Positions 12,199 to 43,880 of a stretch of DNA of 43,880 nucleotides are shown here, one piece after another. Below the pieces are notes generated by a model. The model ran no database searches. It worked only from the letters and a program-made list of their open reading frames with translations, and was not told where the DNA came from. This stretch comes from Candidatus Odinarchaeota archaeon. GTDB taxonomy: Archaea; Asgardarchaeota; Lokiarchaeia; Sigyniarchaeales; SOKP01. Numbering within the stretch: position 1 is the stretch's first letter; every line of letters begins with the position of its first letter. Location of the stretch: assembly GCA_048885325.1 (NCBI GenBank), contig JBHLPZ010000004.1, forward strand, positions 1 to 43,880, in the 5' to 3' direction. Made by a program: the position numbers and the translations under genes.

Positions 12199-12902
12199 TA
12201 TTCATCCTCCTTTAAAATAATTCTTGCATCAACAACCATTAGTCCTTTATCTTTTTCAAACACGATTACAGGATTTAAATCTAATTCTTCTATTTCTGGA
12301 TTTTCAATTAAAAGACGACAACATTTCAATAAAGTATCTATTATTTTTTCATTATCTGCTTTGGGTTGTCCTCGATATCCGTCCAATAGTGGAAAAGCTT
12401 TGATGCTTCTAATCATCTTATTAGCTTCGTCTTGAGAAATTGGACATACTCGATGTGACACGTCTTTAAATATCTCAACAAAAATACCACCTAATCCAAA
12501 CATAAGAACTGGTCCAAAATTAATATCTCTAATGCTTCCTATTATTATCTCAACGATGCCTTTTTCTACCATTTTCTGTATATTTACTCCTTCTAATTGA
12601 GCCTCAGAACTGTAGTGTTTGCCATTATTAATAACTTCTTTATAAGCTTTCCTAACTTCCTCATCAGAATTCAAATTTAACTTAATTGCTCCAGCTTCAG
12701 TTTTATGGATTATATCAGGGCTCATTAATTTTGCAACTACAGGATAGCCTATATTATTAGCAAATCTTACAGCTTCATCCTCATCTTTAACAACTTTATA
12801 TTCTCCAACTGGAATGTCATACTTAGCAATTAGATCTTTACTTTCATGTTCCATCAAAAATGTTCTATTCTTACTAAGGACATTTCTAATTATTGAATCC
12901 AC
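12198..12902 (-). CDS. acdB: ADP-forming acetate/acyl-CoA synthetase beta subunit (ATP-grasp)
   Basis: GYPVVAK, HKTEAG, FGPVLMFGLGGIFVE, ELDLNP, VDAR; TAATG stop/start overlap with acdA. Confidence 0.92.
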   Translation of the reverse strand: MDSIIRNVLSKNRTFLMEHESKDLIAKYDIPVGEYKVVKDEDEAVRFANNIGYPVVAKLMSPDIIHKTEAGAIKLNLNSDEEVRKAYKEVINNGKHYSSEAQLEGVNIQKMVEKGIVEIIIGSIRDINFGPVLMFGLGGIFVEIFKDVSHRVCPISQDEANKMIRSIKAFPLLDGYRGQPKADNEKIIDTLLKCCRLLIENPEIEELDLNPVIVFEKDKGLMVVDARIILKEDE

Positions 12903-36948: not shown

Positions 36949-37563
36949 ATGCAAAATCTAAATAAGAAAGATTTTGAACCTGAAAGCCTTACCAATGAAG
37001 CAATAGAAGATCCTAAAATATTAACTAAACTGATAAATAATCTTATAGCTAAAGCTGAAACCATTCGATATAATAGCCATAAAGTCTTATTAATTATAAG
37101 TCAGAATAAACCAGAAGTCCTTTATCCACATTGGGATTTTTTTGTTGATTTGCTAAAAAGTCAAAACAATTTCCATAAAGTTATTGGAATTCAGATTCTC
37201 GCCAACCTTACCAAAATTGATACTAAAAACAAGTTTGAAGATATTTTTGATAATTATTGTAATTTACTTGATGCTAAAAGTGTAATGACAGCTGGGCATT
37301 TAGCAGCGAATCTTGGTATAATTGCTAAAGTAAAACCGAACCTGAGAGATAAGCTAACTAAAGTATTATTAAGCATAGATGAGACCCATCACGAAATTAG
37401 CCGTAAAGACTTAATAAAAGCATACATTATTGAATCTTTCAATGAATTCTTTAATGAAATAGAAAATAAGGAAGAAGTCATTAAATTTATAAAAGCTCAA
37501 CTGAAATGTAAAAGCCCTAAAACTAGAAAATCAGCTGAAAAATTTCTTAAAAAATATAACTAA
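36949..37563 (+). CDS. ARM/HEAT-like alpha-solenoid protein
   Basis: Repeated amphipathic helices (LINNL..IRYNS..; FVDLL..; AANLGIIAK). Confidence 0.7.
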   Translation: MQNLNKKDFEPESLTNEAIEDPKILTKLINNLIAKAETIRYNSHKVLLIISQNKPEVLYPHWDFFVDLLKSQNNFHKVIGIQILANLTKIDTKNKFEDIFDNYCNLLDAKSVMTAGHLAANLGIIAKVKPNLRDKLTKVLLSIDETHHEISRKDLIKAYIIESFNEFFNEIENKEEVIKFIKAQLKCKSPKTRKSAEKFLKKYN

Positions 37564-37588: not shown

Positions 37589-37629
37589 TTGTCGCAATGA
37601 CATGACAATATTGTGACAATATTTAAATA
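37589..37629 (+). promoter_or_regulatory. Candidate operator abutting the actin TATA box
   Basis: TTGTCGCAAT-N11-ATTGTGACAA (9/10 inverted repeat); TGACAATATT direct repeat at 37603 and 37614; TTTAAATA 37622-37629. Confidence 0.55.
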
Positions 37630-37801: not shown

Positions 37802-38938
37802 ATGGAAGAATTAAAATTTAATAGGGCCATTATTTTAGATAATGGAACAGGAATTTCTAAAAACGGTTTTGGTGGAGAAGATCAACCACGTTCGGTTTTT
37901 CCTACCATGATTGGAACCCCAAAATATGGAACTGTGATGCCAGATGTAAAACATTTTTCTAGAGACTATTATATTGGAGAAGAAGCAATGGAACTTAGAG
38001 GTCTTTTAAGTCTTAAATTTCCGATCGAACATGGTATTGTAGAAGATTGGCCTGCTATGGAAAAATTATGGCATTATACATATTATACTGACCTAAGAAT
38101 TGATCCTTCAGAACATCCGATACTCCTTACAGAAGCACCTTTGAATCCGCGACAAAATAGAGAGAAAATGGCAGAAATCATGTTTGAGACATTTAATGTA
38201 CCTGCATTGTATATTGCGATGCAAGCAGTGTTATCTTTATATGCTTCAGGAAGAACAACAGGAACTGTAATAGATATTGGCGATGGGGTGTCTCATATTG
38301 TTCCGATTTATGAAGGTTTTGCATTAAGTCATGCTATACAAAGAACAGATCTAGCAGGAAGGGACGTTACAAAATATTTACAAAGGTTGCTAAGACAAAA
38401 AGGTTACTCATTCACCTCAACTGCTGAAACTGAAATTGTAAGAGATATTAAAGAAAAGCTATGTTATGTGGCAATAGATCCAGAAAAAGAATTACTCCTT
38501 TCTAAGAAAGTTGATGGAATGGAAAAATTGTTTATGCTTCCGGATGGAGAAACTATTAGCTTAGGAATAGAAAGATTCTTAGCTCCTGAATGTTTTTTCA
38601 ATCCATCAGTGATAGGAAAAGAGTTAGACCCAATTGATGATCTTATAGTAAGCGCTATATCTGAATGTGATGTTGACCTTCGAAGAGACCTTTACAGTAA
38701 TATTGTATTGTCCGGTGGTTCTACTATGTTTCCAGGTATTAAGGAAAGGTTAACAAAAGAGATAAAAGAAATGATTTCTGAATCCGTGGAAGTAAGAATT
38801 ATCAGTCCACCAGAACGTATGTATTCAGTGTGGATTGGAGGTTCAATTTTAGGCTCATTAAAGACATTTCATAGGATGTGGATTACTCGACGCGAATATA
38901 AAGAATTTGGCCCTACAATAATACATAGGTGTTTTTAA
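37802..38938 (+). CDS. Asgard actin (Lokiactin-like)
   Basis: DNGTG phosphate-1, [77 protein letters not shown] end; GGAGG RBS. Confidence 0.97.
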
Positions 38939-38962
38939 TGATATGGTTTAAAATTTTCAATC

Positions 38963-38970
38963 TTTTTTTT
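38963..38970 (+). terminator. Possible leaky poly-T terminator between actin and the fusion gene
   Basis: T8 run inside the 54-bp spacer, followed by a GAGGGGGG RBS. Confidence 0.35.
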
Positions 38971-38992
38971 AGAAGAGGGGGGTTAATTAGAA

Positions 38993-40195
38993 TTGGAAAA
39001 AATTATCAACAAGTTAGATAAATTTCTTACATCTGAATCTAGAATTATTTCAACAATCATTATTGAAGGAAAGAGTAAAATTGTTTATTCTTCTGATAAC
39101 TGGGATATTGCTGATGATTTGGAAGAAATTAATTCTTTATGGGATTCACAAGAACTCAGTGAGCTTTTTATTGATAATATTAAGTACAAAATTATACAAA
39201 TCTCATCTGAAAAACTTGTTGCTATGAATTTAGAGAAAAGAGGTAATATCATTGGATTTAAGGATGATGAAAGAAGAATCATCTGTCGAATAGAACCTGG
39301 AGAACAAATTTTCTTAGGTTTAATAGATGCTTCGAGAACTTTAGGAGAGCTACGTAAAAGGGATCCTTATTTAGATCCGCAAGCAATTTTAGGTAAAATT
39401 AAAGAGATTAAATGGGCAACTCCAAAAGTATTACTTAATGATACTCAAAATTTACAGAGATTAGGATTGTTAAAAGTTGGATTGACCCTTGAAGAGGCAA
39501 AAGTATACTTGAGTCTTCTTCAAAGTGGCGAAAAAGGAGAAAAGGTGGGAACTCTTAATAAACAATTGGAAATTAAGAGAACGACAATATATCGGATCAT
39601 TGAGCGTTTAGTTAATAAACGATGGGTCGATAAGTTAATGGAGAGACCAACAGGTACGACTATTTATGTTGCTAGACCCATTAATGAGGTAATTGATAAT
39701 ATTATTAAAGAAAGGGAAGATGAATTAAAGATTCTTAAATCCTTTAGATATATAATGGGGGAAAGCTCGGAAAATGGCTGGATTGACGTTTCAAAAGAAT
39801 TTAACACTTTGGGGATAATTGGAGTGGATAAAGATTGTGGACTTATTATATTTGAATATGAAAAGGCTGTGAAAGAAGAGGTTCTCATTCAAGCAGCTTT
39901 ACAACTATCATATGAGAAATTAAAAGGACAATTGCAGCCTGATTCTGAAAAAGAAGAATTTATAAATGCGGATTTGAAGGATATCAAAATCACTCGAGTT
40001 AAAATTGATAATTATTTAGGGGCAATTATGTATTTAAAATTTAAGGATGGTTCTAAAACAGCAAATAATATCGGAACTGATTGGATCGTAGCGGCGAAGC
40101 ATCTCGCAATGCCTATAGAAGATAAAATTTATGTAATATGGGGTTCAGAAGAAAAATTTCCAATATTATTGAGTATAATTTTGAGACTAAAGTAA
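38993..40195 (+). CDS. Profilin-like domain fused to a TrmB-type winged-helix domain and an unknown C-terminal domain
   Basis: aa 1-120 match the Loki-profilin pattern (IVYSSDNWDI..W..IDNIKY.IIQ...KLVA.N..GNIIGFKDDERRII..EP); aa ~155-250 match TrmB (GLTLEEAKVYLSLL..KRTTIYRIIERLVNKRWV..YVARP). Confidence 0.75.
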   Translation: MEKIINKLDKFLTSESRIISTIIIEGKSKIVYSSDNWDIADDLEEINSLWDSQELSELFIDNIKYKIIQISSEKLVAMNLEKRGNIIGFKDDERRIICRIEPGEQIFLGLIDASRTLGELRKRDPYLDPQAILGKIKEIKWATPKVLLNDTQNLQRLGLLKVGLTLEEAKVYLSLLQSGEKGEKVGTLNKQLEIKRTTIYRIIERLVNKRWVDKLMERPTGTTIYVARPINEVIDNIIKEREDELKILKSFRYIMGESSENGWIDVSKEFNTLGIIGVDKDCGLIIFEYEKAVKEEVLIQAALQLSYEKLKGQLQPDSEKEEFINADLKDIKITRVKIDNYLGAIMYLKFKDGSKTANNIGTDWIVAAKHLAMPIEDKIYVIWGSEEKFPILLSIILRLK

Positions 40196-40660
40196 TTAGA
40201 AATATGGAATTTCGGAATGATTCTTTGCCTCCTCATAAATGGGGCCCTTAGCAATGAAACCTAGGGCTAAACCACTGCCTCTTCCAACTAGTAAATTGTC
40301 ATTAAGTTTAATATTAAAGGCTCTTAAAGTTTTTTGGGGAATTTCTATAATTCCACTCTTGTAGATTGTAATCCAACAGTAATTTTTTTCTTTTATTTTA
40401 AATAATTTTCCTTCTTCTAATTGGTGATTTAATAATTCAGGGAATCCTTCTAACATTTTTCCAATTGGACTATTTTTTAATAGACGACTTGAACTTAACC
40501 CAAAACCACCTGAACGTTTACTTCCAGACATTAATATACCTTTATCATCTTCATTAAGTCTATATTCAAGATAAGCTTCTTCTGGAATTATTAATTTACC
40601 ATTTTCCCCTACTTTTGACCATCCAAATATATACTTCCCACCTTTTACAAGTTGAGGCAT
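40196..40660 (-). CDS. Tandem AbrB/MraZ-like swapped-hairpin protein
   Basis: Two repeats: SKVGENGKLIIPEEA and ITIYKSGIIEIPQKT. Confidence 0.65.
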   Translation of the reverse strand: MPQLVKGGKYIFGWSKVGENGKLIIPEEAYLEYRLNEDDKGILMSGSKRSGGFGLSSSRLLKNSPIGKMLEGFPELLNHQLEEGKLFKIKEKNYCWITIYKSGIIEIPQKTLRAFNIKLNDNLLVGRGSGLALGFIAKGPIYEEAKNHSEIPYF

Positions 40661-40674
40661 ATTACCCTCCTTCT

Positions 40675-41250
40675 TTATTTCTCTCTTAAAATTTTTTTAT
40701 AAAAATTTGATATTATTCTTTCACGTTCATTAGCAATTTTCTTTGATACATCTAAATACATTCGGTTTCTCAATTTCATTATTTTAGTCTCTAGATGATG
40801 AATCACTTGTTCAATTCCACCCCTATTTTTAACTGTAAATCCTATTGTACGATATAAGCCAATAGCTCCTAATGCATCTAATTTATCTGCATCAGATAAA
40901 ATTTTTGCTTCTAGTGTTTTAGGCTTTATCTCATTTGAAAAAGAATGAGCCCTTATACAATGAATAATATTCTCAATATCCTCTTTAGGGAGTCCAATAT
41001 CCAAGTTAGTTAAAAAGTTAGTTGCTAATTCGGCAGAAATTTCAGCGTGATTTCTTTTTAAGGTATTTACTCCTTCATTAATTCTTCCAATATCATGAAG
41101 TAACGCCGCTATTTTTAATATTTTAATATCTGCATCTAATTTTTTTCCTATTTTAAGACATAAACTATATACTCTTTCAATATGAGGAAAACCATGAATA
41201 TCATCAGATTCAGAATTCTCTCTCGCAAATTTAAGAATTGTTTCCAACAT
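40675..41250 (-). CDS. HD-domain phosphohydrolase (YedJ-like)
   Basis: HGFPHIERV, AALLHDIG, HA, AHSFS, DADKLDALGAIG. Confidence 0.9.
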   Translation of the reverse strand: MLETILKFARENSESDDIHGFPHIERVYSLCLKIGKKLDADIKILKIAALLHDIGRINEGVNTLKRNHAEISAELATNFLTNLDIGLPKEDIENIIHCIRAHSFSNEIKPKTLEAKILSDADKLDALGAIGLYRTIGFTVKNRGGIEQVIHHLETKIMKLRNRMYLDVSKKIANERERIISNFYKKILREK

Positions 41251-43196: not shown

Positions 43197-43880
43197 TTAG
43201 TATTTTATTTCAGTTCCCTCAATTTTCTCTAAAGCCTCTAAAGCCGCACTTGCTACAAGATCGGACTTATCTTCAGATATAGTTTTTAATATCGGTACTA
43301 CATTAGGGTCATCTGGATTTATTTCTCCGAGAGCTTCTACTGCACGCCACCTTACATCAACTTTCTTATCTTTTAATAAATCGATTAATGTTGAACTTGC
43401 TTTAGATGCTGCATGTCCAATCTTTCCTAAAGCTATTGCCGATTCAATTCGAACTCTCTTATTTGGATCATTTAACGTCTCTATAAGAGTGGGTATTGCG
43501 TCTATTGCAATATTTCCCAACTTACCTAATGTTCTTGCAGTTTCAACTCGAATTGAGCTTTTAGGATCCTTTAACGCTTCAATTAATTTTGGAATGGCTT
43601 CAGCTGCTTCATCTCCAATTCCTCCAATAGCCCAAATTGCCAAACTCCTTACTTTTTTTTCAGGATCATCAATCGCTTGAATTAAAGTAGGTATTACTGG
43701 GTAACCGATATTACGGAGGGCATCGGCTGCTTTCCCTTGAATCCCTTTCTTTTTATCATGTAGTGCTATAGATAAATTTTTAATTATTTCAGGATATGGG
43801 AGTTTCATCTCACCAAAAGTCTCAATTATGCTCTTACGAACAATGGGATTATAATGTTCTAAATATTTCAAAAGGCTGGG
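43197..43880 (-). CDS. HEAT (PBS-lyase-type) repeat protein, 5' end outside the window
   Basis: 33-aa repeats such as PKLIEALKDPKSSIRVETARTLGKLGNIAIDAI; the frame stays open to the window edge. Confidence 0.88.
   Translation of the reverse strand, partial: PSLLKYLEHYNPIVRKSIIETFGEMKLPYPEIIKNLSIALHDKKKGIQGKAADALRNIGYPVIPTLIQAIDDPEKKVRSLAIWAIGGIGDEAAEAIPKLIEALKDPKSSIRVETARTLGKLGNIAIDAIPTLIETLNDPNKRVRIESAIALGKIGHAASKASSTLIDLLKDKKVDVRWRAVEALGEINPDDPNVVPILKTISEDKSDLVASAALEALEKIEGTEIKY

Follow-up and report, generated by a model that had tools for sequence, protein, structure and literature searches.

A profilin-TrmB fusion encoded beside a divergent actin paralogue in Lokiarchaeia: a candidate actin-responsive autoregulator of its own cassette

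Several described systems pair an actin with a regulator or a dedicated partner. In eukaryotes, the transcription regulator MRTF-SRF binds monomeric actin at its barbed face and reads the G-actin pool, in ParMRC type II partition the ParR adaptor contacts the same cleft of the actin fold on ParM, and in Crenarchaeota the crenactin-arcadin operon encodes an archaeal actin together with dedicated small partner proteins. The Asgard actin regulators described so far (profilins and gelsolins) act, to our knowledge, on filaments only. Here we describe a protein of 400 amino acids (aa) from Candidatus Odinarchaeota archaeon (class Lokiarchaeia in GTDB), in which a profilin domain is joined to a TrmB-type winged helix. 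It is encoded in a stretch of 43,880 nucleotides (nt), contig JBHLPZ010000004.1 of assembly GCA_048885325.1, hereafter the window, directly downstream of a divergent actin gene. We give an even chance to the proposal that this fusion is an actin-responsive one-component TrmB-type autoregulator of its own cassette, that is, of the actin gene and fusion gene behind one promoter.

With MRTF-SRF the locus shares an idea and no homology: MRTF works through RPEL motifs and by shuttling to and from the nucleus, whereas the fusion has a profilin joined to a DNA-binding domain, and its sole identified candidate target is a cassette with a spare actin paralogue, not the main actin gene. The likeness to the crenactin-arcadin operon lies in an open reading frame (ORF) of 47-83 aa that follows actin in about half of the cassettes; arcadins are not fused to DNA-binding domains, and no sequence relation between them and the small ORF was seen, no comparison aimed at it having been made. 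With the Asgard profilins (Loki profilin-1, Loki profilin-2 and Odin profilin; 5yed/5yee, 5zzb and 5zza) the fusion has in common a fold, sequence likeness and a predicted contact with the barbed face of actin. It differs from them in that the profilin is the N-terminal module of a 400-aa protein with a Pro-Tyr linker and a TrmB winged helix-turn-helix (wHTH), in that actin binding is predicted, and in that the domain is nearer to a family of long profilins (~205 aa) than to the 134-aa canonical type.

With the TrmB family (TrmB, TrmBL1/Tgr and TrmBL2) the fusion shares the PF01978 winged helix, a predicted long helix after it and a palindromic candidate site beside the transcription factor B recognition element (BRE) and TATA box. 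Its differences are the apparent lack of a sugar-binding effector domain, a very narrow C-terminal family, the added N-terminal profilin domain, and a target that appears to be one promoter instead of a metabolic regulon. According to PMC4158304, the TGM motif of the family is TATCAC-N5-GTGATA (which the candidate operator, known here by comparative genomics, resembles), autoregulation is common in the family, the helix after the wHTH of TrmB forms the dimer, and TrmBL2 and TrmBL3 are still members without a sugar-binding domain. The accessible text of two Lokiactin papers (PMC9834061, PMC13716822) holds nothing linking actin to DNA or transcription. Full-text literature searches (supplements and one review lie outside their coverage) yielded no report of a protein that joins profilin to TrmB or to a wHTH, nor of a cassette built around an actin paralogue, which agrees with the first-pass annotation of the window, made from the letters alone, that knew of no such architecture. 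New here are a divergent actin paralogue, an inverted repeat unique to the cassette promoter, and the small ORF in about half of the cassettes.

In the window, the cassette has the following features.

37591-37629, + strand: promoter with candidate operator (three half-sites, each a helical turn from the next), then a TATA-like box
37802-38938, + strand: actin paralogue, here 'Lokiactin-2', 378 aa
38939-38992, + strand: intergenic spacer, 54 nt, with a T8 tract (38963-38970) and GAGGGGGG (38975-38982), without a small ORF
38993-40195, + strand: fusion ORF, 400 aa, TTG start codon
38993-39352, + strand: profilin domain, fusion aa 1-120 (PDB sequence matches and Foldseek)
39353-39469, + strand: linker, fusion aa 121-159, predicted disordered, highly conserved
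39470-39754, + strand: TrmB-type wHTH and long helix, fusion aa 160-254 (PF01978)
39836-40192, + strand: C-terminal alpha/beta domain, fusion aa 282-400, beta-alpha-beta-beta-alpha-beta-beta-alpha

One gene really does join the profilin domain, the TrmB winged helix and the C-terminal alpha/beta domain. Its TTG start, which follows the actin stop by 54 nt in an AT-rich window (~30% G+C), is credible because the Shine-Dalgarno-like run GAGGGGGG stands 11-18 nt 5' of it and because the homologues share the same first residue in the alignment. An AlphaFold model of the whole fusion has a mean predicted local distance difference test score (pLDDT) of 68, with the domains at 70-85 and the linkers below 50. 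The first-pass annotation had placed the gene 54 bp 3' of actin and divided it into three parts. Both points are borne out, the actin being identified by Pfam (Actin, E 7e-131) and the parts by PDB sequence matches, PF01978 and a confident C-terminal model, and every motif that it had named is in the translation (NWD 36-38, W50, IKY 63-65, LVAMN 75-79, GNIIG 84-88, KDDER 90-94 and EP 101-102).

A homology search that scored 7,999 candidates gave 175 proteins at E <= 0.001, and 116 of the best 120 cover at least 96% of the query (identity 44-91%); the homologues among the matches listed are annotated as HTH or TrmB proteins only. That the join is an artefact, a misassembly or a mis-call of separate profilin and TrmB genes, deserves next to no credence. 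Stand-alone halves do exist (the ~205-aa long profilins and wHTH-plus-C-domain proteins of 283-308 aa), but one unbroken frame runs through 44 near-full-length loci from many independent assemblies and through those 116 proteins, the linker between the halves is highly conserved, and the survey refutes this explanation.

The N-terminal domain matches Asgard profilins in sequence and in predicted fold. When aa 18-120 were compared with all PDB chains by phmmer, the matches were 5zza_P (E 1e-6), 7pbh_A (3.7e-6), 5zzb_A (1.4e-5) and 5yed_A (2.1e-5), and a 32-sequence family profile found the same four Asgard profilin chains at E 1.3e-12 (5yed_A, the best), 1.6e-11, 1.1e-9 and 6.3e-8. Ranks 1-5 in Foldseek are Loki profilin-2, Loki profilin-1 and Odin profilin (5zzb, 5yee, 5yed and 5zza among them; E 6e-8 to 4.5e-7, TM 0.72-0.76 on target), followed by eukaryotic profilins, and the first Roadblock entry, a Roadblock2 dimer, does not appear before rank 20 (E 8.7e-4). 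The model has the profilin order of helix, two strands, helix, five strands and helix. On these comparisons and on the model, profilin is favoured over roadblock, GAF or PAS, as the first-pass annotation had proposed. The closest relative of the domain is a 202-aa profilin-plus-tail paralogue in the same genome (35% identity, E 5.8e-25), a type matched in most listed genomes of the window's family. Two such 'long profilins' (202 and 224 aa) occur in the genome, each a profilin domain with a common C-terminal helical tail that is SGYINYYLQQNN-like. Their positions are listed here with that of the canonical type (G, C and L are our handles for genomes, contigs and loci).

G000:C22:12239-12847 (L002:1462-2070): long profilin, 202 aa
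G000:C25:20167-20841 (L003:1474-2148): long profilin, 224 aa
C100 (L004): canonical profilin, 134 aa

The linker that follows is predicted to be disordered (pLDDT below 50 over aa 124-154), yet its mean column majority is 0.74, against 0.59 in the profilin domain. P125 is nearly invariant and Y126 invariant, and L133, G134, K135 and K140-W141-x-T143-P144 are also kept. The Pro-Tyr motif recurs in the stand-alone long profilins and in methyltransferase fusions. In related genomes, the profilin domain with its Pro-Tyr linker is also joined to an LCM-type S-adenosylmethionine (SAM) methyltransferase (PF04072, E 2.5e-31, 424 aa), and it occurs in a 728-aa protein with an N-terminal zinc ribbon.

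L133:443-1717 (G171:C13), L131 (G174:C37) and L132:91-2277 (G189:C47): alternative profilin fusions in related genomes

The first-pass annotation had also called a TrmB winged helix with a trailing helix and an alpha/beta domain without a family, and both stand. Residues 160-229 match Pfam TrmB (PF01978) with 43.5 bits, where the gathering cut-off is 25.6, and a helix (230-254) directly follows the wing in the model. The recognition-helix residues K195, R196, T197, I199, Y200, R201 and I202 are invariant across the family, and TrmBL2 chains align over the wHTH and C-terminal region in Foldseek (E 1.3e-3). Modelled in isolation, aa 282-400 fold confidently (pLDDT 83, predicted TM-score 0.77), and Pfam and NCBIfam scans of aa 255-400 gave no family match. 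Foldseek against the PDB gave nothing at E <= 1e-3 for this domain (the best was PsbP 4rth_A at 3e-3, TM 0.37), a wide fold search with VIA peaked at Z 7.4 (Apa, 5zxa), under the tool's noise guide of ~8, TrmB and TrmBL2 were absent from both of these lists, and the ESM Atlas gave no usable feature match for aa 262-400. PsbP, Mog1, DcrB and the cores of class II aminoacyl-tRNA synthetases and BirA were considered as its fold and rejected (VIA Z 5-7, below the noise level of ~8). An exhaustive phmmer search found 30 relatives at E <= 1e-3 among 1.84 billion representatives, all of them similar fusions or proteins of 283-302 aa, and a TrmB wHTH precedes the domain in seven of the eight longer ones scanned. 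The fusion is therefore a profilin module added to a pre-existing lineage-specific TrmB-type regulator. In one genome a stand-alone wHTH-plus-C-domain paralogue (a 297-aa open frame; L075:4557-5360, G171:C116) lies directly 3' of the fusion and before an HD gene.

The neighbour of the fusion gene is a dedicated, faster-evolving actin paralogue and not canonical Lokiactin. The genome has four actin-family genes, and 'Lokiactin-2' is 84% identical to the canonical copy on another contig.

G000:C26:9431-10546 (L034): canonical Lokiactin

A search with the window actin in 61 genomes of the family found actin at E <= 1e-80 in 59, and the typical genome has one canonical copy, ~84% identical to the window actin and nearly constant in score. 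Branch lengths in a tree are ~0-0.01 for canonical Lokiactin and 0.1-0.25 for the fusion-linked actins. Canonical Lokiactin is identical or nearly so across the genera of the family, an extreme conservation relative to the paralogue. An actin lies directly upstream on the same strand in all 12 full-length fusion loci of a 201-genome sample of the phylum, and four of four further intact divergent paralogues have the fusion downstream (16/16 with the first 12). In a scan of all species-representative genomes by pattern, which gave 48 loci (44 near-full-length) and is a superset of the earlier loci, not an independent sample, actin is directly upstream in 42 of the 44, the other two having just 756 nt and 3 nt of upstream sequence. 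None of 28 canonical-type Lokiactin loci has a fusion within 1.5 kb. The linkage to actin seen by the first-pass annotation thus holds in related genomes, and its adjacent gene is a Pfam actin and is linked; by tree, synteny and substitutions, however, this actin is the divergent paralogue and not canonical Lokiactin.

Positions at which the paralogue departs from the canonical residue are concentrated in 36-53 and 64-84 (E43G in 13/15, T47P in 12/15, E50K in 12/15, Q64E in 14/16 and T84P in 13/16), and each of V75I, V166I and V361I is present in 15 of the 16 paralogues. Residues 36-53 we take to be the D-loop or DNase-I-binding loop, which makes longitudinal filament contacts (the numbering being offset by 2 from rabbit actin). 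A quick tree allows a single origin of the fusion-linked actins (one change suffices, with a support of just 57), and the shared derived residues suggest one ancient duplication.

The cassette is accessory: about one in four of the sampled species of one family have it, and its occurrence within the genus is patchy. All 12 of the 201 sampled genomes with a full-length fusion belong to the window's family (41 family genomes sampled), and 9 of 16 genomes of the window's genus have the gene. Almost all loci of the wider scan are in metagenome-assembled genomes titled Promethearchaeota or Promethearchaeia, a few bear the names Hod-, Hermod- or Odinarchaeota, and one lies on a 2.7-kb contig from a Dehalococcoidales bin; no cultured strain is named in the titles of the 48. 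Stop-containing remnants of the C-terminal part of the fusion occur in two genomes (L016, G174:C4:86025-86372, and L018/L128, G049:C1), the second adjoining the usual HD gene with no actin within 3 kb upstream. In a further locus (L074, G208:C140), the divergent actin has two in-frame stops (TGA and TAG) and no fusion. The remnants indicate repeated loss of the cassette by decay.

A complex of the window actin (13-row alignment) and fusion aa 1-135 (32-row alignment) was predicted in three runs with three controls. The score (ipSAE) was 0.77 (runs 0.76, 0.77 and 0.77), the best control gave 0.00, and the mark passed is one reached by 58 of 80 solved complexes and by 2 of 110 mismatched pairs. 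The runs share at least 89% of contacts, and the pLDDT of the partners is at least 79. The contacts on actin (128-132, 170-177, 290-293 and 355-378) we take to be the classical profilin site on the barbed face, between subdomains 1 and 3, while those on the fusion are in strands 66-80, helix 103-121 and linker 125-134. In the model, the linker residues 125-134 face actin 367-370, which P125 and Y126 touch. The prediction supports a profilin domain sitting on the barbed face of the neighbouring actin, the partner with which the first-pass annotation had paired it. The actin interface is identical at 24 of 30 positions across all paralogues and canonical copies; this face being nearly the same in the paralogue and in canonical Lokiactin, either could be the partner.

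The promoter of the cassette carries a conserved element upstream of the paralogue, an inverted repeat GTCAC-N6-GTGAC(A) followed after 3-4 nt by TTTAAATA. Extra half-sites often lie 11-12 bp upstream, giving 2-4 half-sites per promoter. In the window the half-sites are GTCGC (37591-37595), ATGAC (37602-37606) and GTGAC(A) (37613-37618), in the array GTCGC-N6-ATGAC-N6-GTGACA-ATA-TTTAAATA, where the TATA-like TTTAAATA is at 37622-37629, ~170 nt 5' of the actin ATG. The pattern [half-site]-N6-GTGAC(A)-N3-4-TTTAWATA is found in 32 of the 40 loci having at least 450 nt upstream; among the remaining eight, six are one-step variants by eye and two show no element. In five of five other genomes (3.7-4.6 Mb) the perfect palindrome occurs exactly once, at the cassette promoter, and a reversed control pattern occurs 0-1 times per genome in the same five. 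The 3.32-Mb window genome has no perfect GTCRC-N6-GYGAC. It has two occurrences of GTGACA-N2-5-TTTAWATA (the cassette promoter and position 12455 of the window, inside a coding ORF), and 18 of the palindrome relaxed by one mismatch, three of them intergenic: the cassette promoter, C164:6857 and C269:1241, no TATA-like box being seen beside the last two. No such element was seen upstream of canonical Lokiactin, and the actin-to-fusion spacers contain no palindrome and no TATA-plus-palindrome.

The invariance of the recognition helix parallels that of the half-site, which is conserved across cassettes whose proteins are only ~40% identical. Because the cassette promoter is the only one with the candidate operator and the invariant recognition helix fits the half-site, the fusion appears dedicated to its own cassette, and no wider regulon was found in the window genome. 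This leaves MRTF-SRF-like control of the main actin gene of the cell, which the first-pass annotation had suggested by analogy, unsupported.

In the autoregulator proposal, the fusion would dimerise through the helix after the wHTH, as TrmB does, and would bind the GTCAC-N6-GTGAC repeat of its own promoter. Its profilin domain and conserved Pro-Tyr linker would bind the barbed face of monomeric actin, whether that of the co-encoded paralogue, of Lokiactin or of both. Occupancy by actin would then alter operator binding, such that the unpolymerised pool would feed back on expression of the paralogue and the regulator. As to the sign of this control, an overlap of the site with the BRE position speaks for repression, and its place 5' of the TATA box is one linked to activation among TrmB-family regulators.

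Several observations weigh against this proposal. The Pfam Profilin model (PF00235) has no match at E <= 10 in aa 1-135 (the three stand-alone profilins of the genome score 18.9-23.1 bits with it, likewise below the 25-bit cut-off). The pass of the complex prediction shows likeness and may be recall, since Loki and Odin profilin-actin complexes have been solved (5zzb, 5yee, 5zza). Of all parts of the fusion the profilin domain varies most (mean column majority 0.59, against 0.71-0.77 in the remaining parts), and within it the residues predicted to touch actin show no extra conservation over the others (0.575 vs 0.605). In the spacer, an oligo-T tract comes after the actin stop (T8 in the window, T8-T13 in the spacers inspected from other cassettes); it may dampen read-through into the fusion gene and so uncouple its transcription from that of actin. 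The operators in the window's clade have degenerate left half-sites, and having one site per genome would suit a centromere-like function just as well as autoregulation.

The low conservation of the profilin domain and of its interface also speaks for a different explanation, unlikely in our judgement, in which the profilin fold was kept and actin binding lost. The domain would then serve generic sensing or oligomerisation, with a lipid, a small GTPase or a proline-rich partner as its ligand, and the regulator would control the actin paralogue in answer to that other signal. Judged from its domain combinations, the profilin domain behaves as a portable module for different outputs in Lokiarchaeia, and its joining to the LCM methyltransferase and to the 728-aa zinc-ribbon protein suits a general sensor, as does the Roadblock2 dimer among the fold matches (E 8.7e-4). 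Set against a loss of binding are the sequence likeness specifically to actin-binding Asgard profilins, a complex model that passes while its controls score zero, the modelled seat of P125 and Y126 on actin 367-370, and an actin synteny that is strict even where fusions share only 39-47% identity.

The centromere-like role of a single site leads to the main rival of the autoregulator proposal, which we consider improbable: the fusion as a ParR-like adaptor that sits on its unique repeat array and links this DNA to the dedicated paralogue, whose monomers or filament barbed ends its profilin domains would hold. The cassette would in that case be an actin-based module for DNA positioning or partition, with autoregulation as a side effect, as with ParR and parC. 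ParMRC has the same gene order (an actin-like nucleoside triphosphatase, then a DNA-binding protein with an actin-contacting part), likewise places its repeats in the promoter region before the actin-like gene, and likewise occurs as one locus per replicon. Exactly one perfect site per genome (5/5 genomes), the 11-12 bp phasing of the 2-4 half-sites, and the remodelled region 36-53 of the paralogue (E43G, T47P and E50K, in 12-13 of 15), which suggests distinct filament properties, are in keeping with such a machine, as is the predicted contact at the barbed-face cleft, equivalent to the cleft of ParM at which ParR sits. Other features speak for a different kind of system: the cassette has a eukaryote-like actin, DNA would be bound by a wHTH instead of the ribbon-helix-helix of ParR, there are 2-4 half-sites and no array of ~10 iterons, and profilin normally binds monomers and leaves after addition. 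The cassettes lie within large chromosomal contigs (1.28 Mb and 1.05 Mb) among ordinary neighbours with no plasmid or virus hallmarks seen, and an accessory distribution, patchy even within a genus and with decayed remnants (L016, L018/L128), is ill-suited to an essential segregation machine. A more specific form, for which we hold out little hope, is a minimal actin-driven DNA machine in which a fusion multimer on the single palindrome would feed paralogue monomers to a filament end, much as formin with profilin, and so move or anchor the locus; if true, cytoskeleton-chromatin coupling would have a forerunner in prokaryotes.

Some cassettes have a further member. About half of the loci, the window among them, have 48-131 nt between the actin and fusion genes, and the other 22 have 228-656 nt. 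In each of these 22, which are all the cassettes whose spacer reaches 200 nt, the two genes flank an ORF of 47-83 aa (two such ORFs in one locus).

L102:2735-2938, L108:2774-2971 and L126:2466-2666 with 2676-2870: small ORF examples (from L094-L126)

The small ORF has an N-terminal motif like IKIIDGIPCIIL ([IV]K[IV]IDGIPCI[IV]L), an acidic middle and a basic C-terminal helix (that of L123 is divergent). Four were scanned against Pfam with nothing above the cut-off. In the window genome tblastn found no homologue, the window spacer (38939-38992) included, and the best match, at E 0.026 on C12, was taken as chance, its translation reading like a purine-biosynthesis enzyme. The small ORF may encode a third partner in the cassette, conceivably a peptide that binds actin.

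The surroundings of the cassette in the window are as follows.

36949-37563, + strand, and 43197-43871, - strand: HEAT/ARM-repeat proteins flanking the region
40196-40660, - strand: ORF of 154 aa, convergent to the fusion with zero gap between the frames
40675-41250, - strand: HD-domain gene, 191 aa, convergent (PF01966, E 5.5e-19)

An HD match lies downstream of the cassette in 27 of the 44 near-full-length loci. The 154-aa ORF is 83-88% conserved in the three closest relatives (L005-L007) and has no Pfam family. The upstream HEAT/ARM protein (204 aa) has only weak PDS5 and Cnd1-type matches (E 9e-4), and its place 5' of the cassette is conserved only among the closest relatives. The remaining neighbours are ordinary (an AMP-binding enzyme and HEAT-repeat proteins).

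The cassette is a compact system of one actin paralogue, one regulator and one candidate operator, and it identifies a second, fast-evolving Lokiactin lineage that is altered at residues 36-53. It lets one ask whether the actin monomer pool is read at the level of transcription in a prokaryote, or whether DNA is tied to actin, a question that bears on how cytoskeleton-to-nucleus signalling arose before eukaryotes. The cassette is thus a candidate link between the archaeal cytoskeleton and DNA, and one that is testable.

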